64,000 nucleotides of DNA from a bacterium (GTDB taxonomy: Bacteria > RBG-13-66-14), in NCBI GenBank assembly GCA_035528375.1, contig DATKYS010000051.1:4503-68502 (forward strand), given 5' to 3'. The notes beneath the pieces are model-generated. The model did no database searches and was not told where the DNA came from. It saw only the letters and a program-made list of their open reading frames with translations. Each line of letters begins with the position of its first letter. Within the stretch, counting starts at the first letter, position 1. Positions 3,133-56,387 of the stretch are shown piece after piece. The translations under genes and the position numbers were made by a program.

Positions 3133-3140
3133 GAGGAGAC

Positions 3141-3806: not shown

Positions 3807-3814
3807 GAGGCGAA

Positions 3815-25863: not shown

Positions 25864-28254
25864 TCACAGCCAGAGAGAACCGACGAGCCGGGTGAGCCCC
25901 GCCGCGAGCCAGGCCAGTACGGTGAGGTACGCCGCGGTGAAGGCCACCCAGCGCCACTTCCCGGTCTCCCGTCTTATCACCGCCAACACCGCCACGCAGG
26001 GTACATAAACCAGGACGAAGACCATGAGTGAAAGGGCGACCAGCCAGCCTCCGCCGCCGGTGCGGGCGTCCCATTCCTCCTTCAGGCGTCCCTGCAGCGG
26101 GGCGGTTCCCGCATCGCCCCCGCTCTCGGAGTAGAGCACGCCGAAGGTCCCCACGACGACCTCCTTGGCGGCGAAACCGGCGACGAGTGCTGACGATACC
26201 TTCCAGTCGAAACCCAGCGGTTCCATCACCACCGAAACGCCGCGGCCGATGACGCCCAGCGGGGTGTGGTAGAGCCTTTCGGCCTCACGGTCGGCCTCGA
26301 TTCCGGCCAGCCGCGAGCGGTGGGCATCCCGTGCGGCGAGAAGTTTTCCCGCGGCGTCGAGGAGGGAGTCCGCCCCCGTGGCGGTCGGCATGACCGCAGT
26401 TCCCAGGCCGGGCAGGCGCGGCGCCGATTCCAGCGCCTCCAGACGGTGTACCGCCGCCATCAGCGGCGCATCGTTCTCCAACTCCGGCAGGAAGCCGTCG
26501 CCGGTCGCGGCGGAGCCCTCCGCCGGTCCGAGACCGAGCGACGCGGCCACCGCGGTCTGCTCCTCGACGTACTCCGCGTCCGCCCCCGCGATCGAGCCAT
26601 CGAACTTTCCGCCGTCCTCCGGCTCCAAGGGGAAGGCGGTGAGCGCCCAGATGACGATCATGGCCAAAAGAATCACCGTCCCCGCCTTGCGGATGTACAT
26701 CCAGGCCCGGTTCCAGGCGTGCAGGAGCACCGCCTTCACCGTGGGCGCGTGGTACGGCGGGAGCTCCATGACGAAGGGGACCTGCTCCCCCTTGAGGACG
26801 GTGGAGCGCAGAACCTTGGCGGCGACGACCGCCAGGACGATGCCCAGGGCGTAAACGGCGAATATTACGGTCCCCGCGTAGCGCGCCGGGAAGAAGGCCC
26901 CGGCCAAAAGGATGTACACCGGTAGCCGCGCGCCGCAACTCATCAGAGGCACCGTCAGAATCGTCACCAGCCGGTCCCGGGGGTTCTCCAGCGTCCGGGC
27001 CGCCATCACCGCCGGCACCGTGCAGCCGAAACCGATGACCATGGGGATGAAGCTCTTGCCGTGCAGCCCCAGCCGGTGCATGAGCCGGTCCATGACGAAG
27101 GCGCCCCGGGCCATGTACCCCGAATCCTCCAACAGCGAAATCATCACGAACAGCAGGAGGATGTTGGGCACGAAGACCAGCACCCCGCCCACGCCGCCGA
27201 TGATCCCGTCCGCCACCAGGGACCGGACGAGCCCCGCCGGGATGAGCGTGTTCGCCAGGCCTCCCAGCCAGCCGAACAGCCCGCCGATGACGCCCATCAG
27301 CGGCTCGCCCAGCCGGAATGTGACCTCGAAGGTGAGCCAGAGGACGACGGCGAAGATGGGCAGGCCCCAGATGCGGTGGGTGAGGACGTGGTCTATCTTC
27401 TCCGCCGTTTTGACGCGCCCCTCGACGTTGCGGGTCAAGGTCTCGCGGATGGCCCCGGCGGCGAATCCGTAGGCCGCCTCGACGAAGTGGTCCTCGGGAT
27501 CGTGGCCCAGGAGGCTCCGCAGGCGCTCCCGGGATTCCTCCACCAGCTTCGCCAGCGGTTTGCCCGCTTCACCGAGACGAGCCAGTCGGCTTTGGTACTC
27601 GGCGTCGGACTCCAGGAGCTTGACCGCCTGCCAGCGCGGCGGCCCGCCCAGGAAGGCCTCGGGGTGCTCCTGGAGAAATCCCTCGACCCGGGCGATCTCC
27701 CGTTCCAGGTCCCGCCCGTAGTGGACGTGGACCTCCTTGCGCGGCTCGTCGGAGGTGAACACCCGGACCACCGCCGCGAGGAGCTCGTCCAGGCCGCGCC
27801 TCTTCACGGCGACGACACCGACTACCGGGCAGCCCAGAAGCTCCGCCAGCGCCGCCGTGTCCAGCGTGTCCCCCCGCGACTCCACCACGTCCATCATGTT
27901 CACCGCCACCACCAGCGGCAGGCCGAGCTCCAGGAGCTGTGTGGTGAGGTAGAGGTTGCGCTCGAGGTTGGAGCCGTCGAGGATGTTAACGATGACGTCG
28001 GGCTCGCCCGAGGTGATGAAATCCCGGGCCACGAGCTGGTCCGGGGTGAGGGGGGAGAGGGAGTAGGTGCCCGGGAGGTCGGTTATTTCGAGGTCGAAGC
28101 CATCGAAGACGCGCCGGCCCATGCGCCGCTCGACGGTCACGCCGGGCCAGTTGCCCACCTGCTGGTGGCCGCCGGTCAGCGAGTTGAAGAGCGCCGTCTT
28201 GCCGCAGTTGGGGTTGCCGGCGATGGCGACCCGGATGGTTCTGCCGTCGGCCAT
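25864..28254 (-). CDS. feoB: Ferrous iron transport protein B
   Basis: N-terminal G-domain (IAGNPNCGKTALFNSLTG, DLPGTYSL) followed by a polytopic membrane domain with tandem gate motifs. Confidence 0.9.
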   Translation of the reverse strand: MADGRTIRVAIAGNPNCGKTALFNSLTGGHQQVGNWPGVTVERRMGRRVFDGFDLEITDLPGTYSLSPLTPDQLVARDFITSGEPDVIVNILDGSNLERNLYLTTQLLELGLPLVVAVNMMDVVESRGDTLDTAALAELLGCPVVGVVAVKRRGLDELLAAVVRVFTSDEPRKEVHVHYGRDLEREIARVEGFLQEHPEAFLGGPPRWQAVKLLESDAEYQSRLARLGEAGKPLAKLVEESRERLRSLLGHDPEDHFVEAAYGFAAGAIRETLTRNVEGRVKTAEKIDHVLTHRIWGLPIFAVVLWLTFEVTFRLGEPLMGVIGGLFGWLGGLANTLIPAGLVRSLVADGIIGGVGGVLVFVPNILLLFVMISLLEDSGYMARGAFVMDRLMHRLGLHGKSFIPMVIGFGCTVPAVMAARTLENPRDRLVTILTVPLMSCGARLPVYILLAGAFFPARYAGTVIFAVYALGIVLAVVAAKVLRSTVLKGEQVPFVMELPPYHAPTVKAVLLHAWNRAWMYIRKAGTVILLAMIVIWALTAFPLEPEDGGKFDGSIAGADAEYVEEQTAVAASLGLGPAEGSAATGDGFLPELENDAPLMAAVHRLEALESAPRLPGLGTAVMPTATGADSLLDAAGKLLAARDAHRSRLAGIEADREAERLYHTPLGVIGRGVSVVMEPLGFDWKVSSALVAGFAAKEVVVGTFGVLYSESGGDAGTAPLQGRLKEEWDARTGGGGWLVALSLMVFVLVYVPCVAVLAVIRRETGKWRWVAFTAAYLTVLAWLAAGLTRLVGSLWL

Positions 28255-28317
28255 GAGTCCCGCGGGAGGAAAAAGGAGAGGCCGATCCCTCCCCCTATCA
28301 GAAAAACGAACGGGCCG

Positions 28318-28617
28318 CTAATCCACCCGGCGCACGTCCACCTTGCGGGCCAGGCCCCGGCCCAGGGCCAGGCGGGTGTCGCCGATGGAGATGATGAGGG
28401 GGTAGATTTCCTCCACGACGGCCCGGACGCCCGGCGCCAGTCCCAGCTCGCAGAGCCGTTGCCGCGCCATGCGCCCTCCGTAAACGGCGACCACCTCGAA
28501 GGCGTCGCCGGGGGCCAGGTCCTCGATGAAGAGGGCCTCGCCGGGTCGCCTCTCGACCACGCGACCGAACCCATGATGCCTGCCGAAGTGTTGCGGGGCG
28601 CCGTGGTCGTGTCTCAT
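28318..28617 (-). CDS. feoA: FeoA-domain protein with His-rich N-terminal extension
   Basis: The SH3-like FeoA core is LFIEDLAPGDAFEVVAV...RLCELGLAPGVRAVVEEIYPLIISIGDTRLALGRGLARKVDV. The N-terminus is MRHDHGAPQHFGRHHGFG. Confidence 0.65.
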   Translation of the reverse strand: MRHDHGAPQHFGRHHGFGRVVERRPGEALFIEDLAPGDAFEVVAVYGGRMARQRLCELGLAPGVRAVVEEIYPLIISIGDTRLALGRGLARKVDVRRVD

Positions 28618-28990: not shown

Positions 28991-29563
28991 TCAAATCAGC
29001 CCGGTGAGCCCGATGAAGGCCATCGCCATGATGCCGGCGGAAATCATCGTTATCCCCGGCCCCTTCAGCCCCGCCGGGATGTCCGACTTCTCTATCTTCT
29101 CCCGGATGCCCGCCAGCGCGACGATCGCCAGCATCCACCCCAACCCCGACCCGATCCCGTACCCCACCGTCTCCAGGAATCCGTACCCCCGCAGGACCAT
29201 GAACAGGCTCACCCCGAGGATGGCGCAGTTCACCGTGATCAGCGCCAGGAACACACCGAAGGAGGCGTAGAGGTCGGGGGAGAACCGCTCGATGGCCAGC
29301 TCGAGCACCTGGGTGATGGCCGCGATGACCACGATGAAGATGATGAACTGGAGGTGCTCCACGCCGAAGGGCACCAGCAGGTAATGCTGGATGGCCCAGT
29401 TGGCCGCCGAGGTCAGCGTCATCACCAGCGTCACCGCCATCCCCATGCCGAAGGCGGTTTTCACGTCCCGGCTGACGGCGATGAAGGGGCACATGCCCAG
29501 GAAGTTGGTGAGGGCGATGTTGTTGGTGAAGGTGGCGGCGAAGAGGACGACCAGCGCTTGCAT
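28991..29563 (-). CDS. nqrE: Nqr/Rnf-type membrane subunit NqrE (RnfA homolog)
   Basis: MQALVVLFAATFTNNIALTNFLGMCPFIAVSRDVKTAFGMGMAVTLVMT... is colinear with NqrE/RnfA (LGxCPF motif). Confidence 0.75.
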   Translation of the reverse strand: MQALVVLFAATFTNNIALTNFLGMCPFIAVSRDVKTAFGMGMAVTLVMTLTSAANWAIQHYLLVPFGVEHLQFIIFIVVIAAITQVLELAIERFSPDLYASFGVFLALITVNCAILGVSLFMVLRGYGFLETVGYGIGSGLGWMLAIVALAGIREKIEKSDIPAGLKGPGITMISAGIMAMAFIGLTGLI

Positions 29564-29565
29564 GG

Positions 29566-30621
29566 CTATTCCCCCTTGACGGCGGCCCAGGCTGGCTCGC
29601 CGTCGTAGCTCTCGTTTTCCGTAAGCCGGATTTCCACCGGAAGCTCGGATTCGGCCCCGCTCCCGAACAGGATTATCTCAGAGGAAGGGTCGCCCACGTC
29701 GGCCGTCTGGCCGATGAACCAGTCCCCCCCGGCGGGATCGGGCGCGAGGTTGAATCGGTCCGGCTCCAGGGGCCGGGAGGAAAGAACCGTCTCCGTGGGG
29801 GCGTCCATCCGGGCGCCGTACATCAATTCCCCCTCCCGGTACGGGACGAGGAGAGTGCCGTCGGGGAAGCGGCGGAGCGGGCCGAAAACCTCGTCCCCCG
29901 GGGTGGCGAGATCCGAGTTCGCCAGGGCGTCATGAACGAAAACCAACCCGGCGGTGAAGGGCGACACCAACTCGGACCAGGGTTCGTAGACGCAGACCAC
30001 ACCGAAGCCCGCCACGTGGACCGGCCAGCGGTAGTCTCCCGGCTCCAGGCTCTGCGGCTCCAAGACCCCGCGCTCCAGATCGTAGTAGTAAACTGCGAAA
30101 CAGTTCCGCCGCCCGGACAGGTGCTCCAGCTCCTCGGTGCTCCCCGCGAAGAGCCCCACCGCGCCGTAGTCAATGGCCTCGTAAGAGGAGAAATAAATCC
30201 GCTCGCCGTCGGCGGACCACGAGAGGTCGTTCTCGACGCCGGGGGTGTCGGTCAGCTTGTCCCAGACGCGGTCCCGCCCGGTATTGTTCAGGTCCATCAG
30301 GTAGAGGTCGGGCTGTCCGTACATCTCGCTCACCCAGGCCAGGTAGCGCCCGTCCGGTGAGAGGGCGGGGGACCGGTCCGCGCACGTGTTGTAAGTAATC
30401 CGGTCCGGGAGACCCGTGTCCAGGTCCATCACGTAGATTTCGAGGTCGCCTTCGCAATCGGAGACCCAGGCCACGCGGCCGGCCAGTCCGTTCTCGGCGC
30501 AGAGGGCGGCTATCCCCTCGCCGTTGGAGGCCAGGGCCGGTTCGATTTTATCCTGCACCGCCGACGCGGCGGTCAACATCGCCAAAAGGCAGAGAAACAC
30601 CGGTTTCATCGCACCGTCCAA
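29566..30621 (-). CDS. Secreted TolB-like WD40/PD40 beta-propeller protein
   Basis: Signal peptide, then repeated PD40 motifs (SPALSPDGRYLAWVS, DLSWSADGERIYFSS). Confidence 0.65.
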   Translation of the reverse strand: MDGAMKPVFLCLLAMLTAASAVQDKIEPALASNGEGIAALCAENGLAGRVAWVSDCEGDLEIYVMDLDTGLPDRITYNTCADRSPALSPDGRYLAWVSEMYGQPDLYLMDLNNTGRDRVWDKLTDTPGVENDLSWSADGERIYFSSYEAIDYGAVGLFAGSTEELEHLSGRRNCFAVYYYDLERGVLEPQSLEPGDYRWPVHVAGFGVVCVYEPWSELVSPFTAGLVFVHDALANSDLATPGDEVFGPLRRFPDGTLLVPYREGELMYGARMDAPTETVLSSRPLEPDRFNLAPDPAGGDWFIGQTADVGDPSSEIILFGSGAESELPVEIRLTENESYDGEPAWAAVKGE

Positions 30622-30699
30622 AAGGTATCGCTCGCGGCGAAGGTCATTGAATCAACGAAGCTCGACCTCGCGGAACCGGGGTGCAGCGCCCCGCGCTGC

Positions 30700-31794
30700 C
30701 TAGCCGAATTTGTCGAAGTGTATCCGGCCTTCCGGGACGCCCTTCTCGATGAGCTCGGCGGTGAGGGAGTTGACCACCACCGGCGCCCCGCACAGGTAGT
30801 ACTCGTCGTCCGCGTGGCCCTCGAAAAATTTGCCGAAGAACACGAGGTCCATGCGCCCCCACTCGCCGCCCCAGTCCTTCTCCTCATCGGCCGACAGCAC
30901 CGGGATGTAGTGGAACTTGGGGTTCTTCTCCCACTCTCCGATGTCCGTCTCGCCGTAGAGGTCCCCCTTCACGCGGGCGCCGAAAAAGAGAAAAACCTCC
31001 ACCTCCGGGTCGCTCGCCAAAATGTCCGGGATCAGGCTGCGGAAGGGGGCCAGGCCGACGCCGGTGGCCAGGCAGACGGCGTTGCGCCCCGAATGGGCGT
31101 AGAGGAATTCGCCGTAGGGCCCGGAGAATTTCACCGGGTCGCCCTCCTTCATGTTGTGCAGGTAGTTGCTGGCGACGCCGAGTGCTTCGAGGCGCACGTT
31201 GAAGGAGACGGTCTCCCGCAGGCTGGGCAGGCTGGACATGGAGTAGGCGCGGTAGACCGCCTCACCGGTCTCGGGGTCCGGGGCCTGTATCTGGACGTAC
31301 TGCCCGGCCTTGAACTTTATCTGCGGCGGGTCGCTGAGCCGGAAGGTCAGCTCCTTGATGGCCGGCGTCACCAGCTCGGCCCGCTCCAGCACCGCCTCGT
31401 ACTCGCTTATTTCAAAATACTGCGACGGAATTTCGACCCGCATGTCGTTGCGGACCTTGACCTGGCAACTCAAGCGCACGTTCCTGGCCATCTCCTCGTC
31501 GGTGAGTACGATTTTTTCCGTGGGCAGGTACGGCCCGGCGCCCTCGGTGACCACCAGCTTGCAGTAGGCGCAGGTCCCCTTCCCGCCGCAGGCCGAGGGG
31601 ATGAAGTACTTCTGCTGGAAGAGGGTGTAGAGGAGCGAGTTGCCGCCCCTGACCGAGAGCTCCTTGTCCCCGTTGAGGGTGAGGGTGACCTGGCCGTAGT
31701 CGGCCAAAAATTTGTCGGCCAGGGCGAGGATGAGCCCCAGGGCGAGGGCTATCCCGCCGATGACCGCCGCCGAGGTGAGGATGATGGGGAGCAT
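30700..31794 (-). CDS. nqrF: Na+-translocating NADH:quinone oxidoreductase subunit F-like protein (TM anchor + 2Fe-2S ferredoxin + FAD/NADH-binding FNR domain)
   Basis: N-terminal TM helix, ferredoxin cysteines (SACGGKGTCAYCK...C), and FNR-like RAYSMSS...GVGLAPFRS. Confidence 0.8.
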   Translation of the reverse strand: MLPIILTSAAVIGGIALALGLILALADKFLADYGQVTLTLNGDKELSVRGGNSLLYTLFQQKYFIPSACGGKGTCAYCKLVVTEGAGPYLPTEKIVLTDEEMARNVRLSCQVKVRNDMRVEIPSQYFEISEYEAVLERAELVTPAIKELTFRLSDPPQIKFKAGQYVQIQAPDPETGEAVYRAYSMSSLPSLRETVSFNVRLEALGVASNYLHNMKEGDPVKFSGPYGEFLYAHSGRNAVCLATGVGLAPFRSLIPDILASDPEVEVFLFFGARVKGDLYGETDIGEWEKNPKFHYIPVLSADEEKDWGGEWGRMDLVFFGKFFEGHADDEYYLCGAPVVVNSLTAELIEKGVPEGRIHFDKFG

Positions 31795-31823
31795 ATACCT
31801 CTAATACCGGCTGACGTGAGTTC

Positions 31824-32465
31824 TCAAGGCTCGGAGAAGACGACCGTCGTTCCCTCTGGTGGCTCCTCGCGGAGGGATTCGGCGATTTTTTCGAAGTCCG
31901 GCGCGTCGGCCGCCAGGACGCCCACCACCAGGAAAAGCCTACTCACCCCCGTGGTCTCCACGCCCTCGGTTTCGGCGAAGAACCCGCCGGTCTGAACCAC
32001 CACCGAGTGGAGGGAGCCCGACATCCGCCCGGAAGTCACCGGCGCGCTCCAGCAGTGCCCCTCCACCGCGGCCGTGTCGTACTCGCCGCCGGTGAAGCGG
32101 TGCGTCACCGTGTACGCCACGTCACGGTCCACCCACTCGTCGCCGGAGACGCCGAAATAGACGTGAACCGAGTAGGGCTCCCGCGCCGGATCGTACTCGG
32201 GAACGGGCGGCAACTCGATCTCTATCTCGCTCCCGGCCTCCACCGGCCCCAGGGCGAGGGGGAAGACGTATCCCGCGGCGGGATCGCCGTCCAGGAGGGC
32301 CGCCTCTTCCCACACCACCCCGTCGAGGATGATGAAATCGTCGTAGCGTTCCAGGTACGCCGAGTAGTATTCATTCTCCAGGGAGGTCCAGAAGTCGGGG
32401 CCGCGCACGTCGGCCGCCGAGCCGAGAACCAGAAGCGTCACGAGAATGAGGCCGATTCCCCGCAT
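31824..32465 (-). CDS. Secreted hypothetical protein
   Basis: Signal peptide MRGIGLILVTLLVLGSAADVRG. The start is set at this internal Met. Confidence 0.45.
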   Translation of the reverse strand: MRGIGLILVTLLVLGSAADVRGPDFWTSLENEYYSAYLERYDDFIILDGVVWEEAALLDGDPAAGYVFPLALGPVEAGSEIEIELPPVPEYDPAREPYSVHVYFGVSGDEWVDRDVAYTVTHRFTGGEYDTAAVEGHCWSAPVTSGRMSGSLHSVVVQTGGFFAETEGVETTGVSRLFLVVGVLAADAPDFEKIAESLREEPPEGTTVVFSEP

Positions 32466-32505
32466 GTTCCCTCCTAAGCCGCCCGGGCGCGCAGCCCACT
32501 CCCCC

Positions 32506-33873
32506 TCAACGCCCCGTCCCGGACGGTGCGGATGACGCCGTTTCCGCGGCGCCGCGCGCATCCGTAAACCGCCGCCTGAGAAAGTAAACGCTCATGCCGA
32601 TCAGGTACACAGTGATGGAGGACACCACGAACAGCAAATAAGCCGGCTTGTAAACCCCCAGGCGGTTGGCGAAAAAGGCCGCCGCCTCGACCAGGGGCCA
32701 GGCGAGCAGGACGATGCCGGCGAAGGACCACCTTTCGCGCCGCACGTTATCGGCCGTAACCAGGGCCAGGGGCAAAATCAAGAAAATCAGGTAGGTAGGC
32801 CATGTCACCGCGTTGAGCAGAAATACGGCCAACAGAATCACGATGTACTCGTTGAGCCGCCGGCGCGGTTCGCGCGGTTCGCGCCGGAACGCGACCATCA
32901 GCGGGACCAGCAGAGCCAGGCGCAGCGCCTTATCTATCCAGGAGAAGACCGCCGGCGGGACGTTCAACAGGTTGACGCCGGGTGCCCCGGCCCCCTCCGG
33001 GGCGACCAGGTAGCGCGCCAGCGCGCCTGAGAGCGAGACGTTCTTGTCGTGATAGACCAGGTAGTGAACCCCTTGGCTGCCGAACATCGTCGGTTGGAGA
33101 AAGTTGACGTAATACTCGTTGTATAAGGCCAGCGTTCCATCCCATCCGCGGATCAACACCGGCAGCAAGCCGTTGAACACCAAGAAAACGATCACCGCGC
33201 CCACCGCGATCCTTGCGCGTTTGTGGAGCAGAAAGTACAGGACGAAGAGCGCCGGGGCGAGCTTCACCGCCACCGCCATTCCCAGGAGGATACCGGCGCT
33301 CCAATCCCGCTGTTTCTCCGCCATGACCAAGCCGCCCAGGACGAGGGCCATCAACAGGATGTTCGCCTGCCCGTAGATGAAGAGGTTGCAGAACCAGTAA
33401 TGCGCCGTACACAGAAGCGGCAGGCCGATGACGACGAACAGGCGGCTCCCGACGAGCGCCGGATCGGCGTTGCGGAGCAGGCGGTAAACGAGGGACAGGC
33501 AGAGCAGCGTGAGACCGAGGTTGACGAGCCCAAAGGCGACGTAGAAGGCCGACGGGGGCAGCCATGCGATCAGACCGAGCAGGACGACGAACGCGGGGGG
33601 ATATAAGTATCCCCACTGCCCGGGCTCGTAGACCCGCCGGCCGGCGTAGAAGTCGTTGGCGGCCCTGTAGAAGATGGACAGGTCGTTGTCGCTTCCCAGG
33701 TTCACGCGCACCAGGGAGGCCAGGCTCAGGTAACAGAAGGCGGCGACGGCTACGGCGCCGAGGATTATCCAGAGCCGGTAAATCGGTCTGACGCTCCAGG
33801 ATTCCTTCACCCACGCCCAAATGTGGGCGAAGAGACCCGTCGCAGCCGAATCACCCAGTCGTCGTTCGACCAT
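32506..33873 (-). CDS. Polytopic GT-C-type glycosyltransferase-like membrane protein (DUF2029/GT87-like)
   Basis: About 12 predicted TM helices with a DUF2029-like arrangement (..YPPAF.., LLCTAHYWFCNLF, KLAPALFVLYFLLHKR). Confidence 0.5.
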   Translation of the reverse strand: MVERRLGDSAATGLFAHIWAWVKESWSVRPIYRLWIILGAVAVAAFCYLSLASLVRVNLGSDNDLSIFYRAANDFYAGRRVYEPGQWGYLYPPAFVVLLGLIAWLPPSAFYVAFGLVNLGLTLLCLSLVYRLLRNADPALVGSRLFVVIGLPLLCTAHYWFCNLFIYGQANILLMALVLGGLVMAEKQRDWSAGILLGMAVAVKLAPALFVLYFLLHKRARIAVGAVIVFLVFNGLLPVLIRGWDGTLALYNEYYVNFLQPTMFGSQGVHYLVYHDKNVSLSGALARYLVAPEGAGAPGVNLLNVPPAVFSWIDKALRLALLVPLMVAFRREPREPRRRLNEYIVILLAVFLLNAVTWPTYLIFLILPLALVTADNVRRERWSFAGIVLLAWPLVEAAAFFANRLGVYKPAYLLFVVSSITVYLIGMSVYFLRRRFTDARGAAETASSAPSGTGR

Positions 33874-33880
33874 GCGTCAC

Positions 33881-34516
33881 CTACGCCGTTGATTTGCCGA
33901 GGTCCCTTTTCCTCGCGGCTCCATCCTGGACCGTGCGGATGACCCAGATGTATGTCCCGAGCATGAAGAAGGCGCCGGGGGCCATGACCATTATCACCCA
34001 CGGCTCGAATCCCGGCCCGAGGACCGGAATCCCCGCCAGCGTCCCGAAGCCCAGCAGCTCCCGGAAAATTGAAATTATCAACAGGCTCATGGCGTAGCCC
34101 AGGCTCACCCCGGCGGCGTCCAGAATGCTGGGCAGGGGCTTGTTGTTCGAGGCGAAGGCCTCGGCCCGGCCCATGATGATGCAGTTGGTTATTATCAGCC
34201 CCACGTACGGCCCGATGGCCTTGGAAACCGTTGGTACGAAGGACTTTAACGCGATGTCCACCATGATGACGAAGGCGGCGATGATGAGCGTGTAAACCGC
34301 CATGCGGATGCGCTTGCCGGTGACGTTGCGCACCAGGCTCACCAGAAACGAGCTGCACACGGTGACGAAGACCACGGCTGCGCCCATCGCCACGGTGTTT
34401 ATCACCTGGTTGGTCACGGCCAGGGTGGAGCAGATGCCCAGGATCATGCGGAAGATGGGGTTGTCCTCCCACAGCCCCTTGACGAATATCTTCCAGTTTT
34501 CACCCTTCTTGGCCAC
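33881..34516 (-). CDS. nqrD: Nqr/Rnf-type membrane subunit NqrD (RnfE homolog)
   Basis: ...NPIFRMILGICSTLAVT...GLIITNCIIMGRAEAFA... is colinear with NqrD. Confidence 0.85.
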   Translation of the reverse strand: MAKKGENWKIFVKGLWEDNPIFRMILGICSTLAVTNQVINTVAMGAAVVFVTVCSSFLVSLVRNVTGKRIRMAVYTLIIAAFVIMVDIALKSFVPTVSKAIGPYVGLIITNCIIMGRAEAFASNNKPLPSILDAAGVSLGYAMSLLIISIFRELLGFGTLAGIPVLGPGFEPWVIMVMAPGAFFMLGTYIWVIRTVQDGAARKRDLGKSTA

Positions 34517-34519
34517 GGG

Positions 34520-35923
34520 TCACTCCTCCATCTTCGGCGGGGTGCGGCTCCAGCCCATCAACGGCGCAGCTTCTTCGTAGAACACGTCCCACTGCCCGGT
34601 GTAAACCAGGTACCAGTCTCCTTTACCGGTGGAGAAGCTCAGCACCCGGACGGACGTCCCCGCCTCCAACACCCCCGCCTCGGCGGAACCCGCCTCCGGC
34701 AGACAGAGGAGGGTCAGCGGTTCGAGCAGCTCGCCATACGAGCCGTCCTCACACCGAACTTCGTAGAGAAGTCGGGTCAGGTTTACCGGGCTCCAGAAGT
34801 AACCCAGGGGCCGGGCGTAGTCGTTGCCCGGCGGGCAGTAGAGGGCGTAGAAGCCGGCCTCGGGAATCCAGCGGGCCTCCAGGTCCGTCGAGAACCACGT
34901 GCCGCCGGCGAGATAATCGGGCGGCGGCAGCGGGTGCCGCACCCAGTCCAGGGGACTGAGCCACTCGCGGGCCATCAGGATGTGGTCCGGCTCATCGAGG
35001 TAACTCATCACGGAGTGGTAGCGCATCACCTCCGGGGTCAGCTCCGCCCCGCCGCTGATGTAGAACCAGCGCCCGGTAGGTTCTTCCTCCCATTCGGGGA
35101 TGAACGCCCATTCGGTGTAATCGTAGATGCAACGCAGACCGTCGCCGTCCCGGATAAAGCCCAACACACGCTGTTGGGTTGAGGGAGGCCCTCCGACCGG
35201 CCTGGGGGATGAAGAGCGCGCGTCCAGGGTCAGTTGCAGCTCGGCCGCCCCGTCGCCGTTGAAGTCGCCCGCCTCCAGGCCGTAGAGGCTCCAGTTGTAG
35301 TCCCAACCGAGATATCCGGACTCCTTCTCCCGGGCGATGAACTCCTCCGCGGGCACCTCCTCGACGCTCGTCCCCAGGAAGAAATCGGCCAGGCGCACCT
35401 CGGCGCTGAACGAGCCCTCGACCCGGAGCACCAGTGGCAGGTAATAGACGTAATCCGTATCGTAGTAGAACTGCTCGTACTCCGCGTGGATTTCCCCCGG
35501 CCCGACCCGGACCTGCTCCGGGGCGCCGTCGGAGTCCAGGTCCGCGGCGAGCGTGAGCTCCGGCTCGCCGAAGGCGTGCTCGACGACCAGGTGGCGTACG
35601 CCATCCTCCTCCCAGTAGTAGTTATCCTCCTCGGCGGCGACGTAGCCGCGGAGGTCGCCCGAGCGCACCTCGGCCCAGACGTAATCATCCGATGAGTCGT
35701 AATCCACCGCCCAGGCCAGAATCTCGACCCGGTCGCCCCGGTGGAGCAGGCCGATTTTGTTCCCGTCCACCGACGGTGCGTCGCGGACGTTGAGTGCGTC
35801 CACGTCCACCAGGGCGTACATCGGCTCCGGTTCCGGCGTTGAAATCGAATCGGCCCACCCCGGCGCGTCCAGGGCCCCGGCGGCCGCCGTCAGGCCGAGA
35901 ACGATGACGGTCATCAATTTCAC
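34520..35923 (-). CDS. Secreted SH3b-domain protein of unknown function
   Basis: Signal peptide MKLMTVIVLGLTAAAGALDA. SH3b-like segment ALVDVDALNVRDAPSVDGNKIGLLHRGDRVEIL. Confidence 0.55.
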   Translation of the reverse strand: MKLMTVIVLGLTAAAGALDAPGWADSISTPEPEPMYALVDVDALNVRDAPSVDGNKIGLLHRGDRVEILAWAVDYDSSDDYVWAEVRSGDLRGYVAAEEDNYYWEEDGVRHLVVEHAFGEPELTLAADLDSDGAPEQVRVGPGEIHAEYEQFYYDTDYVYYLPLVLRVEGSFSAEVRLADFFLGTSVEEVPAEEFIAREKESGYLGWDYNWSLYGLEAGDFNGDGAAELQLTLDARSSSPRPVGGPPSTQQRVLGFIRDGDGLRCIYDYTEWAFIPEWEEEPTGRWFYISGGAELTPEVMRYHSVMSYLDEPDHILMAREWLSPLDWVRHPLPPPDYLAGGTWFSTDLEARWIPEAGFYALYCPPGNDYARPLGYFWSPVNLTRLLYEVRCEDGSYGELLEPLTLLCLPEAGSAEAGVLEAGTSVRVLSFSTGKGDWYLVYTGQWDVFYEEAAPLMGWSRTPPKMEE

Positions 35924-36552
35924 GGCGTCCCCCCCTTCGCCGCGGCGAGAAAGGCCGCGATGCCCTCGTTCAGCAGCTTTTCGAGCGATTTCGAGGTCTG
36001 GGTGGCCCCGGTGATGGCCGCCACCTCGTAGGGCTTGTCGGGGGCCTGGTAGGCCACGAGGCCCACGTAGCCCGGCGCCGGGCCCAGCGGCAGGTCGTCG
36101 AACTTTTGCAGAAACTCCGGCTCGGCGATCCGCCCCCCCAGCCCCGGCGTTTCCCCCTGCTCCAGGACCCGCAGGCGGTAAATATTTTTGTAATCGGGCG
36201 TCAGGGCCACCAGGACTTTAATCACGCTCCACAGGCCGCTCCCCGAGGCCTCGAACGCCACGCCCAGCTCCTTCCCCGCGTCGTCGTAGCCCCGGTAGAG
36301 CGTCATCCCGCCGGTCTGGTCCTTCTTGACGTGCTTGGAGTAAATTTCGTCCACCCGGGCGGGCGGGAGCTCCACCCCGGGGTCGGCCAGGCCGAAAACC
36401 TCGATGACGCGGCGGTTGAACAGGCGCGCCTTCTGCTCGTCTATCACCGGCTTGGTGTAGGCGTAGAGGGCGGTCAGGGCCGAGGCCACCAGCACCGAGG
36501 CGGCGACGAGGAAGAGGACCATGAAGGGCCGCGAGTCTTTATTGAAGGGCAT
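35920..36552 (-). CDS. nqrC: Nqr/Rnf FMN-binding subunit NqrC (RnfG homolog)
   Basis: N-terminal TM helix and the FMN-attachment motif AAITGATQTSKSL. Confidence 0.8.
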   Translation of the reverse strand: MPFNKDSRPFMVLFLVAASVLVASALTALYAYTKPVIDEQKARLFNRRVIEVFGLADPGVELPPARVDEIYSKHVKKDQTGGMTLYRGYDDAGKELGVAFEASGSGLWSVIKVLVALTPDYKNIYRLRVLEQGETPGLGGRIAEPEFLQKFDDLPLGPAPGYVGLVAYQAPDKPYEVAAITGATQTSKSLEKLLNEGIAAFLAAAKGGTP

Positions 36553-36955
36553 GTTGTTTTATCACTACGATGTTGTACGAGTAGAACTGATAGTCAGGAC
36601 CAGAATACAGATTCCCGGATGATGTCCGCCTCTGTTTTCTACCTTTCTCTTGATGCTGCTTAAGCACATCCTTGTATTGCTTATAGAGGCTATCCGAAAG
36701 ACCAATCAACTTTATGTCTGTAAATGACAGCAGTTCAAGCGTATCTAACTCCTCTCTGACATCGTATATCTCCCCGTAGGTTTTATTTATCCCTTTTTTG
36801 TCCGCCCAACTGGAGACGATATAGAACTCCCAACGCTCGTACAGACCGTAATAGGACCAGAAGGCGGCCTCGACGGGAATGCTGTGCTTGAGTAATGCCT
36901 TGACAATTATCGAGCCTTCCTCCCGATACTCCTTTACCAGAATGTTCTCAACCAT
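36539..36955 (-). CDS. Hypothetical protein, AT-rich island gene (putative partner of the HEPN protein)
   Basis: 138-aa ORF in a low-GC stretch with no recognisable motifs. It overlaps the HEPN gene by 22 nt and the nqrC start by 14 nt. Confidence 0.45.
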   Translation of the reverse strand: MVENILVKEYREEGSIIVKALLKHSIPVEAAFWSYYGLYERWEFYIVSSWADKKGINKTYGEIYDVREELDTLELLSFTDIKLIGLSDSLYKQYKDVLKQHQEKGRKQRRTSSGNLYSGPDYQFYSYNIVVIKQHALQ

Positions 36956-37347
36956 GATAGAACTCCATCGTGAGGATGTGTCACTGCCTCGAAAAGGTCT
37001 TCAGCTTCGTTTTTACTTTTCGTTGGCTCATACCTCGAATCAGGTTTCCATTTTTTTACTGTAGCCAAATATATCGCTGTCTGGTTATTCGCTGGTCCCT
37101 CTCCCAAAGCTGCTTTATCGAATAATTTATCGAAATTATGGGTCCAACTTGCATCCACACGTTCTTTCTCTGGGAATTCGTGTCGCCGGGTTCGTTTAGC
37201 AATTACAGCCTTCAGGGCACATTCAACGGCATACCCTATCAAGTAATAGGCACCGACGTATCTTCTAGCTTCTAACAAAATCTGAGCATCTCTTACGCGA
37301 TCAAGTGCCATTTGTTTTAAATCACTACTCATTAGTAGTGTACCCAT
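36934..37347 (-). CDS. HEPN-domain protein (putative RNase toxin/abortive-infection component)
   Basis: ...ARRYVGAYYLIGYAVECALKAVIAKR... is the HEPN helix. The Rx4-6H motif is present as R-VDASWT-H-NF. It is AT-rich and overlaps the nqrB stop. Confidence 0.6.
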   Translation of the reverse strand: MGTLLMSSDLKQMALDRVRDAQILLEARRYVGAYYLIGYAVECALKAVIAKRTRRHEFPEKERVDASWTHNFDKLFDKAALGEGPANNQTAIYLATVKKWKPDSRYEPTKSKNEAEDLFEAVTHPHDGVLSWLRTFW

Positions 37348-37348
37348 A

Positions 37349-38362
37349 TCAAACTCCCCTCTTTCTCTTTTGTCGTTCCTTAATAAGCGAGTCCACCAGC
37401 GGGGTGAAGGTGTTGGCGAAGAGGATGGCGAAGAAGACGCCCCCGGAGAAGCTCGACGCCGCTCGGATGATTACGACCAGAACGCCGATGAGCGCGCCCA
37501 TGAGCCAGCGGCCGCCGTTCGTGGCCGGGGCGCTCACCGGGTCGGTGGCGAAGAAGAGCGCCCCGAAGAGGAGCCCCCCGCCGGCCAGGGTGAACGGAAC
37601 GTCCGGGACGAAACCGGGCCAGAGGAAATGAAGCACGAGGGCGGCCAGCGACGCGGCGCCCAGGACCGCCAGCGGCGTGCGCCAGTTGACGATTTTCCGC
37701 GCGAGGAGGTAAATCCCCAAGAGGACGAGGAGAACCGCCGCCGTCTCACCCATCGCCCCGCCGGTGTCCCCCCAGAGCATCGGCCCCAGCGGCCCCTGGA
37801 CGCCGGAGCCCTTGAAGGCCGCCAGGGGGGTGGCGGTGGTCACCGCGTCGGCCGCGGTCAGGTCGGGGGCCCAGCGGGCGAACCCCCCGATCCCGCCCCA
37901 GAACGGCTTCCACCAGTAGCCGGCGAAGTACGTCGGGAAGCTGATGGTCACGAAGGCCCGCCCGACCAGCGCCGGGTTGAAAACATTGCGCCCGAAGCCC
38001 CCGAAGACCTCCTTCCCGAAGAGCTGCCCCACGGCCACCCCGATGACCACCAGCCACCAGGGGACGTGCGCCGGGAGGGTCAGGCCGAAAAGAAGCGCCG
38101 TAATCCAGAAGCTGGGGTCCATGGGCCGACGGCGGACGATGGAGAACGCCGCGGCGGTGACCCAGCCCACGGCGTAGGCCAGGGCCAAAAGGAAGGCGCA
38201 GCGCCAGCCGAAGAGATAAACCGAGGTGAGCGCGAGGGGGAGGAAGGCCCAGGAGAACTTGGCGTGGAGCGGCAGGGGCTTGGTCCGGCCCCGGAAGAAG
38301 GGCAGGGCGTGGAGGCTTCCGCGCGCATGGTCCGCGAGAGAGGGCTTCGTAGCGTCCGCCAT
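37349..38362 (-). CDS. nqrB: Nqr/Rnf subunit NqrB (RnfD homolog)
   Basis: FGGFGRNVFNPALVGRAFV motif, a polytopic layout, and a TxAT FMN-site-like segment (DAVTTATPL). Confidence 0.85.
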   Translation of the reverse strand: MADATKPSLADHARGSLHALPFFRGRTKPLPLHAKFSWAFLPLALTSVYLFGWRCAFLLALAYAVGWVTAAAFSIVRRRPMDPSFWITALLFGLTLPAHVPWWLVVIGVAVGQLFGKEVFGGFGRNVFNPALVGRAFVTISFPTYFAGYWWKPFWGGIGGFARWAPDLTAADAVTTATPLAAFKGSGVQGPLGPMLWGDTGGAMGETAAVLLVLLGIYLLARKIVNWRTPLAVLGAASLAALVLHFLWPGFVPDVPFTLAGGGLLFGALFFATDPVSAPATNGGRWLMGALIGVLVVIIRAASSFSGGVFFAILFANTFTPLVDSLIKERQKRKRGV

Positions 38363-38515: not shown

Positions 38516-41155
38516 TCACGCCTCGGTTTCCCCGACACCCTCCGGCTCTTCCCCCTCCAGATCCGGCTTGTTGAAGCGGAGGGTGAAGGTGGCGCCCTTT
38601 CCGGGAGTGGAGGCCACCAGGACCTCGGCGCGGTGCAGCCGGGCCACCTGGGCCACGAAGGAGAGACCGAGGCCGGTGCCGCCCACGTCCCGCGCCGCCT
38701 TCGCCCGGTAGAACTTCTCGAAGATGTGCTCCCGCTCCTCGGGCTCGATCCCCGGCCCCTCGTCGGTCACCGACACCTCCACCGCCCGCTCGAGCTCCCG
38801 GACGGCCACGGTCACGTCGGTCCCGGCGGGGGCGTACTTGACGGCGTTGTCCAGCAGGTTCGCCAGCGCCCGGCTGACCAGGTTCACGTCGGCCAGGACG
38901 GCGCTCACGGCGGGGGGACGGTCGAGGAGGAGGGTCTTGCCGGCCTGGTTGGCGGTTATCCGCCCCAGCTCGATGACCTCCTCGGCCACCGCGCAGAGGT
39001 CCACGGGGAGGAACTGGCCCCGCCGCCGGCCACTCTCCAGGCGGCTCACGTCGAGGAACGTCTCGATGAGCTTCAACAGCTTGTCCGTTTCGGCGGCCAG
39101 GTGCCCCACGTACTCCAGGCGCTCGTCCCGGGAGACCTCCCGGTCCGCGAGGAGCTCGGCGAAGCCGCGGATGGTCCCCAGCGGGCTCTTCAGGTCGTGG
39201 GACAGGATGTGCATCACGTCGCTCTTCATCCGGTCTATGCGGGCCAGCTCGGTGATGTCGGTGAGGGTGACGACGAAGCCGCGCAGGCCGCGCTCGTCGG
39301 CCAGGGGGGCCACCGCAAGAAGGAAGGTCATCCCCTGGATTTTCACCGTGTCGCTGATGGCCCCGTCCACGGCATCCACCAGGAACTGGCGCAGGTTCTG
39401 CCCCGGCATGAGGGAGTATATGCTCTGACCCACCGTCTCCTTGGGTCCACGGGTCCCGTCGCCGTCGGCGAAGAGCTCCCGGGCCGCGGTGTTGGCCAGG
39501 CGGACCACCCCGTACACGCTGGTGAGCAGGATGACCTCGGCGGCGGCGTCCAGGACGTGCTGGAGCGTGAGCCGGCTGGCGGCCAGGTTCTCCTCCAGGT
39601 GGGACAGGATGTCCAGCTTGGCCTGGGTGTGCTCCCGGGTGAGGGTGGCCAGGGGCCAGGCGATCTCCCCGCCGGCGGGGCGGAAGATGCGCTTGAACTG
39701 CTGCGCGCCCGCGGTCAACAGCGCCACCTCGTTCACCGATGGGGTCCCCGAGTAGAAGAGGCAGAGCTCGGTCCCGGCGGAGTTGTCCCGGTACGTGCGC
39801 AGCGGCGGCTCCGGCTCATCCTCGGGGTTGCCGACCTCGCCCTGCCGGAAGAGCACCTTGCCCGTTCCGTCGCGCAGCAACAGGCCGTGGAGCCCCAGGG
39901 TGTAGGTGAGGCTCGTGGCCGCCTCCGCGGCGCCGGTCACCGGCTCCTCCCGGGAGAGCTGGTCGGAGAGGAGCAGCTCCAGGTCCATGAGACGCTTGTC
40001 CAGGGCCCGGTTGACCGATACGAGCCGGCCCAGGCTGGTGAACAAAAACGCCAGGGAGCCCGCCAGAAGGCCCGACACGACGGGGAGTAAATGGTTCGCC
40101 AGGGCGAAAACGGCCCCGGCCGCGAGGGGGTAGCCGACGACGAAACCGATGAAAACGACGATGGAGATTTTCGGGCGGAAGCGGGCGAAGAGGTCGCCTG
40201 TCACCGCCGCCAGGACCAGGGACAGGACGATGAGGGCCCAGCGCGGCCAGACGGTGGGCTCGTCGCCCTCCAGAATCGTAGCCGCCGCGTTGGCGTGCAC
40301 CTCCACCGCCGGCATGGGCGCCCGCATGGAGAAGGGGGTGATGACGGCGTCGTGCAGCCCCTCCGCCGAGGCGCCGAAGAAGACCAGCTTACCCTGGAAC
40401 CACTCCGCGAGCTGGGCTTCGTCGGAGCGCAGGACGGCCACGGCGCTGTACGTCGGGAAGGTGCCCGTGGGGCCCCGGTACGTGATGTCCAACCGGTCGC
40501 TCTGGCTCACCCCGGATTCGAGGGACGCGGACAGCGGTTCGAGCCTCCCCCCGCCGAAAGCGGTGGCGGCGGCGGCGGAGAAGGCGGGGTATGAAAGGCC
40601 GCCGTAGCTCTGGTAGGCGTACAGTGTGCGGTAAACGCCGTCCAGGTCGGGAACCAGCGCCACGTGACCCAGCGAGTGGGCCTTGGCGGAAAAGGGCGCC
40701 GCCGGCGTCAGCCATCTGAGCGGCTGGCCGGGAATCGGGGAGAGGTACACCGGTAGAACGGTGACGCCCATGCCGATGGCGTCGGCCAGACGCTCGTCGG
40801 AGGCCGGGTTGTCCGGCTCCAGGAGGGCCAGGTCCAGCGCCAGGCAGGCCGGATCCGCGGAGTGAATCCGCTCGACGAGCTGCGCCAACAGACCCCGGGG
40901 CCACGGGTAGCGCCCCAGCTCCGTCAGCGAACGCTGGTCAATGGTCACCAGGGCGATTTCGGGATCGGGTTCGACCGGTCCCCGCAAGCGGAACCGCAGG
41001 TCCCGGGTGCCCACCTCGAGCCGGTCCAGGAGGCCGGCGGCGCTCAACGCCGCGGCCACGACGCCGGCCAGGAGGCCCACCGTGAACCCCCAGGAGAGGA
41101 ACCGCTTTTTCTTCCCCCGATCCGCGCCGTTCATCGCTTTCTCGTCGTTTTCCAT
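38516..41155 (-). CDS. Sensor histidine kinase with periplasmic CHASE2 domain, PAS, HisKA and HATPase_c
   Basis: CHASE2 signature (...GRYPWPRGLLAQLV...), multiple TM helices, H-box MHILSHDLKSPLGTIRGFAELL, and C-terminal G1/G2 boxes. Confidence 0.85.
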   Translation of the reverse strand: MENDEKAMNGADRGKKKRFLSWGFTVGLLAGVVAAALSAAGLLDRLEVGTRDLRFRLRGPVEPDPEIALVTIDQRSLTELGRYPWPRGLLAQLVERIHSADPACLALDLALLEPDNPASDERLADAIGMGVTVLPVYLSPIPGQPLRWLTPAAPFSAKAHSLGHVALVPDLDGVYRTLYAYQSYGGLSYPAFSAAAATAFGGGRLEPLSASLESGVSQSDRLDITYRGPTGTFPTYSAVAVLRSDEAQLAEWFQGKLVFFGASAEGLHDAVITPFSMRAPMPAVEVHANAAATILEGDEPTVWPRWALIVLSLVLAAVTGDLFARFRPKISIVVFIGFVVGYPLAAGAVFALANHLLPVVSGLLAGSLAFLFTSLGRLVSVNRALDKRLMDLELLLSDQLSREEPVTGAAEAATSLTYTLGLHGLLLRDGTGKVLFRQGEVGNPEDEPEPPLRTYRDNSAGTELCLFYSGTPSVNEVALLTAGAQQFKRIFRPAGGEIAWPLATLTREHTQAKLDILSHLEENLAASRLTLQHVLDAAAEVILLTSVYGVVRLANTAARELFADGDGTRGPKETVGQSIYSLMPGQNLRQFLVDAVDGAISDTVKIQGMTFLLAVAPLADERGLRGFVVTLTDITELARIDRMKSDVMHILSHDLKSPLGTIRGFAELLADREVSRDERLEYVGHLAAETDKLLKLIETFLDVSRLESGRRRGQFLPVDLCAVAEEVIELGRITANQAGKTLLLDRPPAVSAVLADVNLVSRALANLLDNAVKYAPAGTDVTVAVRELERAVEVSVTDEGPGIEPEEREHIFEKFYRAKAARDVGGTGLGLSFVAQVARLHRAEVLVASTPGKGATFTLRFNKPDLEGEEPEGVGETEA

Positions 41156-56036: not shown

Positions 56037-56387
56037 TTAACTTTCATCTATCTCAATCAAGTTAACTGCTTCCTGTTTTAGTCTGGAGCTTATTATTTGA
56101 TTCATTAAATTGTAATCGTTTTTATCCATTTTTTTAACTTTAAGTCTATTTTTTACCTCACATAAAGGTAACGACATCACCAATAAGCCAAATGCTTCAT
56201 CAAGAAAAGAAACTGAAGCGATAATTAACCCTTCAAAGTCCAAAATAATAACTTCACCCTTAGGCCATCGGCCTATAATAGCTTCTCTAACTGCTTTCCC
56301 TGCATCACGCGTCGCAACCCACTGACCAGCAGTTATTTTCTTAATTGAAAAGATCATCCGAAATCTCCTCGAAAAGTGTTTGTTCAT
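56037..56387 (-). CDS. STAS-like (DUF4325-type) small protein, AT-rich island
   Basis: ...GEVIILDFEGLIIASVSFLDEAFGLL... is a STAS/anti-sigma-antagonist-like core. Low GC. Confidence 0.45.
   Translation of the reverse strand: MNKHFSRRFRMIFSIKKITAGQWVATRDAGKAVREAIIGRWPKGEVIILDFEGLIIASVSFLDEAFGLLVMSLPLCEVKNRLKVKKMDKNDYNLMNQIISSRLKQEAVNLIEIDES

Follow-up and report, generated by a model that had tools for sequence, protein, structure and literature searches.

A predicted NqrA-less NqrBCDEF complex encoded in a permuted operon with interleaved unrelated genes in Candidatus Coatesbacteria

The DNA analyzed here is a stretch of 64,000 nucleotides (nt) from a bacterial metagenome assembly (GenBank assembly GCA_035528375.1, contig DATKYS010000051.1, positions 4,503 to 68,502; the whole stretch is referred to as the window). 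On its minus strand, a tightly packed gene block encodes proteins resembling subunits B, C, D, F, and E, in this order, of the NADH:quinone oxidoreductase that translocates Na+ (Na+-NQR), with no nqrA beside them and with other genes between them. Does this block encode a novel Nqr-like complex with envelope-associated accessory subunits, or have unrelated genes invaded an operon on a large scale? Both possibilities had been offered by a first-pass annotation made from the letters of the sequence. Our comparisons lead us to conclude that the cluster is a member of a widespread NqrA-less NqrBCDEF family (termed the A-less family herein) and not a new kind of complex, and that the absence of nqrA is a rule of this family and not peculiar to the cluster. 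We favor, with a probability of about 0.72, an intact A-less five-subunit complex whose operon has been permuted in Coatesbacteria and colonized by unrelated genes.

Five Nqr-like subunits of an NqrA-less family

The block (28991-38362, minus strand) consists of eleven co-oriented open reading frames (ORFs). The five subunit genes are found where the first-pass annotation had placed them, with assignments that Pfam supports, and the other genes number six, not five as had been counted.

37349-38362, minus strand: subunit B, NqrB/RnfD-like, 337 amino acids (Pfam PF03116 NQR2_RnfD_RnfE, E value of 7e-82)
36934-37347, minus strand: HEPN-domain protein, 137 amino acids (Pfam HEPN, E value of 5e-9; PADLOC PDC-M28A, E value of 2e-11)
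36539-36955, minus strand: HEPN partner, 138 amino acids (no HEPN match, no family)
35920-36552, minus strand: subunit C, NqrC/RnfG-like, 210 amino acids (Pfam PF04205 FMN_bind)
34520-35923, minus strand: secreted SH3b protein with a beta-propeller/FG-GAP-like body, 467 amino acids (Pfam SH3_3)
33881-34516, minus strand: subunit D, NqrD/RnfE-like, 211 amino acids (Pfam PF02508 Rnf-Nqr)
32506-33873, minus strand: GT87 polytopic glycosyltransferase, 455 amino acids (Pfam GT87, E value of 4e-30)
31824-32465, minus strand: orphan secreted beta-sandwich protein, 213 amino acids from Met33 (no Pfam family)
30700-31794, minus strand: subunit F, NqrF-type, 364 amino acids (Pfam Fer2, FAD_binding_6, and NAD_binding_1)
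29566-30621, minus strand: secreted PD40 (TolB/Tricorn-N-like) beta-propeller (Pfam PD40, E value of 4e-17)
28991-29563, minus strand: subunit E, NqrE/RnfA-like, 190 amino acids (Pfam PF02508 Rnf-Nqr)

All five subunit ORFs are full length, and all cofactor ligands and motifs of B, C, D, E, and F are present. In NCBIfam, B passes the cutoff of the rnfD subfamily only, and none of the five proteins reaches an nqrB to nqrF equivalog cutoff (scores and cutoffs of 194/414 for B, 73/255 for C, 214/235 for D, 226.5/247.6 for E, and 235.5/295 for F [TIGR01941]). Among PDB chains, B is equidistant from Azotobacter vinelandii RnfD (125 bits) and Vibrio cholerae NqrB (124 bits); its alignment begins at residue 7 of RnfD, yet at residue 132 of NqrB (415 amino acids), and it combines an RnfD-type short N terminus with the flavinylation motif D-A-V-T-T-A-T (DAVTTATPL). 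Subunit C matches NqrC chains with 48, 42, and 38 bits and RnfG chains with 33 and 23 bits, has a predicted transmembrane helix at residues 11 to 29, and carries the flavinylation motif T-G-A-T (ITGATQTS), which aligns with SGAT of NqrC. Subunits D and E match V. cholerae NqrD (168 bits; RnfE, 116 to 144 bits) and NqrE (192 bits; RnfA, 164 to 185 bits), and the ligands Cys29 and Cys112 of D, together with the equivalent of NqrD D133, and Cys25 and Cys113 of E, together with the equivalent of NqrE E95, all align. The top PDB match of F is V. cholerae NqrF (166 bits), with the 2Fe-2S ligands Cys69, Cys75, Cys78, and Cys110 aligned; a predicted transmembrane anchor (residues 4 to 22) is followed by a 2Fe-2S ferredoxin domain and then by a module for flavin adenine dinucleotide (FAD) and NADH. 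The equivalents of NqrB D346 and D397 are also kept in B, and we take these two residues, NqrD D133, and NqrE E95 to have the role in cation translocation assigned to them by published mutagenesis.

The ratio of nonsynonymous to synonymous substitution rates (dN/dS), computed for the window genes against two relatives, was 0.22 to 0.24 for B, 0.11 to 0.14 for D, 0.12 to 0.14 for E, and 0.14 to 0.26 for F, with an overall range for B to F of 0.11 to 0.26 compared to 0.22 to 0.29 for the flanking histidine kinase and FeoB genes. As judged from these substitution patterns, the five pump genes are under purifying selection and probably still functional in the window lineage. A decaying, nonfunctional remnant, on its way to the state of two related loci described below (L172 and L008), would fit the loss of B, C, D, and E in those two lineages and the heavy disruption of the operon by insertions, but with five full-length ORFs, every ligand kept, and ratios at or below those of flanking housekeeping genes, we consider it very unlikely.

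Relatives were sought in genomes and metagenomes, and 173 loci were fetched in total. The outgroup set of 164 comprised 80 GTDB loci found via an alignment of F, 80 metagenome loci found via D, both taken from among the matches listed, and four loci found by exact lookup. Neither the genome scan with the NqrF alignment nor the metagenome scan with D (best identity, 63%) returned a Coatesbacteria relative among the matches listed. The order B-C-D-E-F is collinear in all 164 outgroup loci; all five genes are present in 129 of them, which have a median span of 3.85 kb and no internal gap above 975 bp. The closest named homologue of F is from Candidatus Coatesbacteria RBG_13_66_14 (88%), and thousands of NqrF-like proteins with lengths near 360 amino acids share 44 to 48% identity with F and come from many other phyla, including the Spirochaetota, Bacillota, Cloacimonadota, Planctomycetota, Lentisphaerota/Kiritimatiellia, Desulfobacterota, Krumholzibacteriota, and WOR-3. 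Identity to family members is 50 to 63% for D and 50 to 73% for E. A neighbor-joining tree of D and E, which has no bootstrap support, contains one canonical Nqr reference, and is indicative only, places the window cluster inside the A-less family, near a subclade with downstream multiheme cytochromes, and the family on the Nqr side of Rnf and outside V. cholerae Nqr. The A-less layout has been mentioned for Thermotoga thermarum and T. lettingae (PMC4148951), for Clostridium ultunense and Alkaliphilus (PMC5924567), and for Izimaplasma (PMC6256511), and each of these papers calls the acceptor unknown. Our set of relatives includes that same C. ultunense locus (L032), and our literature searches found no functional study of an A-less complex.

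The first-pass statement that nothing like NqrA or RnfC lies near the cluster holds throughout the window. Pfam searches of its sizeable ORFs gave no match to NQRA_N, NQRA_2nd, NQRA_SLBB, or RnfC_N and no RnfB or ApbE domain, Fer4 and Complex1_51K were not found in window ORFs, and a tblastn search of the 64 kb with RnfC/NqrA-like proteins from related loci gave no match. In addition, B is shorter than NqrB by about 75 N-terminal residues, which include the quinone-pocket helices; the quinone site of NqrB lies in two N-terminal helices that are absent from RnfD (reviewed in PMC12174285). Because there is no RnfC, no NqrA, and no pocket region in B, both known output routes, the Nqr type and the Rnf type, are missing, and no terminal acceptor is indicated. 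The older argument, which placed the quinone site in NqrA (PMC4148951, PMC5924567), is outdated, and its conclusion about the acceptor holds for this other reason.

Could the cluster nevertheless belong to a canonical six-subunit Na+-NQR whose nqrA, along with apbE or nqrM, lies elsewhere in the genome? The view is restricted to the 64-kb window of an 84-kb contig, and C, D, E, and F score nearer to Nqr than to Rnf. However, all five proteins stay under the nqr equivalog cutoffs, B lacks the N-terminal region of NqrB, an adjacent A is missing in 161 of the 173 loci, and the neighbor-joining tree, with its one Nqr reference and no bootstrap, puts D and E into the A-less clade and apart from V. 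cholerae Nqr, all of which makes this explanation quite improbable.

Several features of the wider family deserve description in their own right. The gene upstream of B is heterogeneous across family loci, and in 12 of the 173 it is an RnfC/NqrA-like gene with two 4Fe-4S motifs (for example, L043:5552-7051, L076:5577-6983, and L079:5084-6460, with shorter forms at L006:523-1509 and L009:1754-2710). These genes have weak matches to NQRA_N, NQRA_2nd, and NQRA_SLBB, with no detected domain for NADH and flavin mononucleotide (FMN), and the loci carrying them fall, in the same unbootstrapped D and E tree, between V. cholerae Nqr and most of the A-less loci; they may be intermediates between RnfC and NqrA. 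Directly after F, a conserved cytoplasmic gene of about 150 amino acids is found at L005:11129-11602 and at the corresponding place in 48 of the 80 GTDB loci (for example, L011:11116-11604 and L014:11108-11569); it has no credible Pfam match at E values up to 1 and carries the motifs GFLG.D.R, VRG.LPCPF, and H.I..HGF(F/Y)EG.GS.FR. This gene, whose product may be a sixth subunit-like component of A-less complexes or may serve in their assembly, is absent from the window and from every Coatesbacteria locus. In some related clusters, "F" is reduced to the transmembrane anchor and 2Fe-2S ferredoxin domain (about 145 amino acids), with no FAD/NADH module (L111:2148-3128, L117, L119:1365-1931, L128, L133, L142:3403-3864, and L165:10809-11345), and in L111 the short form is part of a fusion with a NuoE-like 2Fe-2S domain; input modules therefore seem to be interchangeable within the family. 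Finally, octaheme-type multiheme cytochromes are encoded directly downstream of F in the outgroup subclade nearest to Coatesbacteria (L006:5444-6784, L007:11129-15861, L009:6962-8290, and L166:12671-14020), which hints at a periplasmic electron output there. Cytochromes are nearby in just 7 of 124 outgroup loci, and we rejected multiheme cytochromes as the acceptor at the window locus, as no window ORF carries more than one CXXCH motif.

Inserted genes and the loci of close relatives

The six extra genes are spread over four junctions and bring the cluster to 9.37 kb in the order B-C-D-F-E. The tight junctions described in the first-pass annotation were reproduced when recomputed: there is a 1-nt gap between B and the HEPN gene, a 22-nt overlap between the latter and its partner, a 14-nt overlap between the partner and C, a 4-nt overlap between C and the SH3b gene, and gaps of 3, 7, and 2 nt between the SH3b gene and D, between D and the GT87 gene, and between the PD40 gene and E, respectively. 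The widest spacing inside the block, between F and the PD40 gene, is 78 to 90 nt, with the PD40 gene probably starting at 30609. The beta-sandwich ORF, which extends to 32561 as 245 amino acids, most likely starts at Met33, yielding 213 amino acids with a signal peptide, and therefore does not overlap the GT87 gene. Scans for sigma-70 promoters and terminators gave chance-level counts that are uninformative for this phylum, with the exception of a promoter-like site (28680-28652) that precedes feoA, and no Rfam families or tRNAs were found in the window. The genes flanking the block are as follows.

38516-41155, minus strand: upstream flank, CHASE2 histidine kinase, outside the cluster (Pfam CHASE2, HisKA, and HATPase_c), as the first-pass annotation had it
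25864-28617, minus strand: downstream flank, feoA (28318-28617, its start 373 nt past E) and feoB (25864-28254) (Pfam FeoA and FeoB)

Seven related loci (L173, L010, L002, L003, L172, L008, and L171) were reached by exact-protein lookups. The layouts around F, with the identity of F to that of the window and in order of increasing alteration, are as follows.

L173 (GCA_964436465.1), F 91%: histidine kinase-B-C-D-(three beta-sandwich paralogues)-F-(PD40)-E-feoAB; no SH3b, HEPN, or GT87
L010 (RBG_13_66_14), F 88%: B-C-(SH3b)-D-(beta-sandwich relic and AT-rich ORF)-F-(PD40)-E; neither the HEPN pair nor GT87
L002, F 87%: layout of the window, except that the beta-sandwich gene is replaced by two unrelated genes
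L003, F 71%: D-(2 genes)-F-(PD40, 122 amino acids, PD40, PD40, 174 amino acids)-E
L172 and L008, F 58 to 63%: histidine kinase-(one or two SH3b)-(beta-sandwich ...)-F-(PD40)-feoAB; no B, C, D, or E

B, C, and D are contiguous in L173. The CHASE2 histidine kinase is at the same place in L002, L010, L172, and L173 and thus serves as a conserved synteny anchor, and feoAB lies downstream in every Coatesbacteria locus. Permutation and splitting of the gene cluster are specific to Candidatus Coatesbacteria. The relatives at large have contiguous nqrBCDEF genes without A, not the nqrABCDEF that the first-pass annotation had named as a possible counterexample, and the inserts are specific to Coatesbacteria rather than to a single strain. 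That annotation had also named misassembly as a way for its reading to fail. A chimeric contig or another assembly or binning artifact might be suspected in DNA from a metagenome assembly, but the same order was found again in data that differ in sample and assembler (Logan SRR8554512, ENA ERZ27247683, GCA_001774505.1, and GCA_964436465.1), in which the layout of the window recurs independently, and composition is uniform apart from the HEPN pair, so that the chance of an artifact is negligible.

The HEPN pair stands out by composition. Its G+C content is 42 to 44% (42.5% for the HEPN gene and 44% for the partner) compared to 60 to 70% for the other block genes, and its G+C content at third codon positions (GC3) is 0.35 to 0.56 (0.35 for the HEPN gene) compared to 0.83 to 0.95. 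PDC-M28A, a candidate defense family, was the sole PADLOC match, to the HEPN protein. The pair is present in L002, the only relative in which the partner accompanies HEPN, and absent in L010 and L173. What had been described as a pair of HEPN proteins is one HEPN protein with an adjacent gene; for the 138-amino-acid partner, no NCBIfam or PADLOC family was found, and Pfam gave nothing credible at E values up to 1. Its composition identifies the pair as a recent foreign insertion in the B-C spacer. L010 has a foreign insertion of another kind in this operon: its D/F slot holds, beside the beta-sandwich relic, an AT-rich ORF (L010:9150-10000) that measures about 0.9 kb and begins MNYLLDTNIF....

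For the SH3b, glycosyltransferase, and TolB-like genes, Pfam agreed with the first-pass descriptions. The SH3b protein has a host-like composition, a signal peptide, and a dN/dS of 0.48, and its family is lineage restricted, with 17 homologues in 5.8e9 proteins; its AlphaFold2 model (predicted local distance difference test [pLDDT] score of 83.5) matches SH3b cell-wall-binding domains and generic propellers only. The beta-sandwich orphan, likewise with host-like composition and a signal peptide (dN/dS of 0.62), has 8 family members in 5.8e9 proteins, no credible Pfam match at E values up to 1, and a model (pLDDT of 82) that is a generic jelly roll. The GT87 protein has about 12 hydrophobic segments (dN/dS of 0.42) and is found in L002 and not in L010 or L173. 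The PD40 protein has a signal-like N terminus (dN/dS of 0.31 to 0.45) and is present in one to three copies in relatives. Overall, the dN/dS of the inserts is 0.31 to 0.62, compared to 0.11 to 0.26 for B to F. None of the inserts contains a CXXCH, flavinylation, or Fe-S motif, and the predicted folds of the SH3b and beta-sandwich proteins show no redox cofactor site.

The two most divergent loci suggest what can become of such an operon. In L172, the last 30 codons of C are preserved as a relic directly before the SH3b gene (E value of 7e-6), and in both L172 and L008 the PD40 gene is directly followed by 13 codons that weakly match the start of E (E value of 0.2 to 0.4). The codons of the transmembrane anchor of F survive upstream in L172, interrupted by stop codons, and F starts at an internal Met. 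The resulting anchor-less F (L172:13019-14173 and L008:5191-6195; 334 to 335 amino acids) has a dN/dS of 0.22 between the two loci, which indicates purifying selection and suggests that it has taken on a new role, as a soluble protein, beside feoAB.

Do the exported inserts, then, work together with the pump? Those in question are the SH3b, beta-sandwich, PD40, and perhaps GT87 proteins, which might be periplasmic docking or acceptor proteins for the FMN of C, or might connect the pump with the envelope or with the uptake of Fe(II) by FeoAB. This would accommodate the single strand and the very tight spacing, including 4-nt overlaps and gaps of 2 to 3 nt, the signal peptides or transmembrane segments in all of them, the slots kept across Coatesbacteria loci with feoAB always downstream, a complex without both known output modules, and the periplasmic multiheme cytochromes that adjoin the cluster in the nearest outgroup subclade. 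However, none of the 164 outgroup loci has the inserts, so that the co-occurrence of SH3b, glycosyltransferase, and TolB-like genes with this cluster type, which the first-pass annotation had suggested looking for, was not found there. Their content varies among close relatives, their dN/dS is high, and, together with the anchor-less F, they outlast the deletion of B, C, D, and E. They have no heme, flavinylation, or Fe-S motifs, and their folds are generic binding folds; a homologue of the SH3b protein (46%) lies in an unrelated neighborhood in L171, and FeoB is adjacent in 1 of 160 outgroup loci. We regard a partnership with the pump as unlikely. Because their content varies among close relatives, their dN/dS is high, and they survive the loss of B, C, D, and E, the inserts are hitchhikers and not subunits of the complex, and we infer that the tight spacing reflects hitchhiking on a transcript and not co-function. 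The idea of a novel complex with accessory subunits in the envelope is thus not borne out, and that of an invaded operon is supported by the layouts of the relatives and by the low-GC HEPN pair.

Proposed working and history of the cluster

By homology with the structures solved for Na+-NQR and Rnf, NADH would reduce the FAD on membrane-anchored F, whose 2Fe-2S cluster would pass single electrons to a 2Fe-2S cluster within the membrane, for which D and E would each supply two Cys residues. From there, electrons would move to a covalent FMN on the periplasmic domain of C and on to B with its covalent FMN and its riboflavin, and their transfer would be coupled to the export of Na+ or H+. As for the operon, a compact ancestral B-C-D-E-F cluster would have been permuted in Coatesbacteria so that F came to lie ahead of E, and the spacers would then have been colonized repeatedly by unrelated genes, all of them co-oriented, that probably ride on the operon transcript. 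In this history, the SH3b/propeller-like, orphan beta-sandwich, and PD40 propeller proteins would be long-resident, fast-evolving secreted inserts, joined by GT87, and the low-GC, HEPN-containing two-gene module would be a recent acquisition. On another branch, the pump genes would have been lost, with the inserts and a now-soluble F surviving.

Several points weigh against this account of an intact pump in a colonized operon. The electron path, ion coupling, and acceptor of the A-less family are all extrapolated. The equivalent of NqrB E144 is Ala in B, and that of G141 is Trp. The search for nqrA and for ApbE, which is required for flavinylation, covered the 64-kb window only, and gene spacing is the sole basis on which we infer co-transcription and translational coupling. 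Lastly, the SH3b, beta-sandwich, and PD40 proteins are all exported, according to their signal peptides, to the compartment of the NqrC FMN, and they keep their slots while F diverges to 58 to 71% identity. An improbable alternative, slightly more doubtful still than a pump partnership in general, would have NADH electrons delivered outward via the periplasmic FMN of C, with these three proteins as lineage-specific periplasmic partners. If it were true, the proteins might, for example, tie the pump to the cell wall or to a reduction of Fe(III) that feeds FeoAB, and the interleaving would mean co-function, not hitchhiking.

With the A-less, colonized-operon reading, the cluster draws attention to a family that is very large and taxonomically broad and has been mentioned only in passing in genome papers. 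Its members lack both known output modules, which makes their electron acceptor a question for the bioenergetics of anaerobes, and the pipeline label "Na+-translocating NADH:ubiquinone oxidoreductase" is probably wrong for A-less clusters. The Coatesbacteria loci form a series from a compact cluster to a permuted one with inserts, to one with more inserts, including the mobile HEPN module, and finally to loci with membrane subunits lost, relics remaining, and an anchor-less NqrF kept. This series illustrates how the operon of a membrane complex can be colonized by unrelated genes and then dismantled, and it cautions that tight gene spacing is not evidence of a shared complex.

Other parts of the window also stand out.

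56037-57210, minus strand: very low-GC island (G+C content of 0.42; GC3 of 0.19 to 0.32) with a weakly HATPase_c-like gene of 289 amino acids and a DUF4325/STAS-like gene of 116 amino acids
44077-45110, plus strand: lower-GC pair of an HTH_31 regulator and a Peptidase_M78 (ImmA/IrrE-like) gene
2485-4462, plus strand: three tandem CBM96 carbohydrate-binding-module genes in a region of lower G+C content (0.57)
816-1589, minus strand: gene whose product has an HSDR_N_2 (type I restriction) domain, adjoining the CBM96 genes in the same lower-GC region

The island at 56037-57210 is probably another horizontally acquired two-gene module. The pairing of HTH_31 with Peptidase_M78 is typical of modules associated with mobile elements and defense.

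Comparison with known systems

The cluster shares with Rnf (RnfCDGEAB of Acetobacterium woodii, Clostridium tetanomorphum, and A. vinelandii) the D/G/E/A core and the length and N terminus of its B subunit, which are of the RnfD type. Unlike Rnf, it has neither RnfC, with its NAD+ site, FMN, and two 4Fe-4S clusters, nor RnfB, the polyferredoxin input, and it has instead an NqrF-type input of the ferredoxin-NADP+ reductase (FNR) kind. With the Na+-NQR of V. cholerae, it has in common the NqrF-type NADH input, the four Cys residues of D and E, the flavinylation Thr in B and C, and acidic equivalents of NqrB D346 and D397, NqrD D133, and NqrE E95. It differs from that enzyme in having no NqrA, no N-terminal region of B with the ubiquinone and inhibitor pocket, no insertion of about 28 residues in F, and no apbE or nqrM near the cluster.

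Partial systems of an "NQR/RNF-like" class, proposed to carry NAD(P)H electrons to extracytosolic FMN, were described by Meheust et al. in 2021 (PMC8238504). That class consists of one fusion protein, joining an NqrB/RnfD membrane domain to an NqrF-type NAD-binding domain, and is found mainly in Actinobacteria and the candidate phyla radiation (CPR) (PMC8238504). We considered and rejected an assignment of the window cluster to it, as B and F are separate here and C, D, and E are all present.

The A-less clusters named above and in other genomes (Pseudothermotoga thermarum and P. lettingae, Theth_1137-1141 and Tlet_0865-0869; C. ultunense, CUESP_0375-0379; Alkaliphilus metalliredigens; and Candidatus Izimaplasma ZiA1) have the same five subunits as the window, a short (about 360 amino acids), membrane-anchored NqrF, a B of RnfD length, and no NqrA or RnfC. 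In contrast to many A-less relatives (the 48 of 80 GTDB loci described above), the window has no gene of about 150 amino acids after F. The A-less clusters are compact, with B-C-D-E-F in about 3.9 kb, whereas the window carries the order B-C-D-F-E and six inserts.

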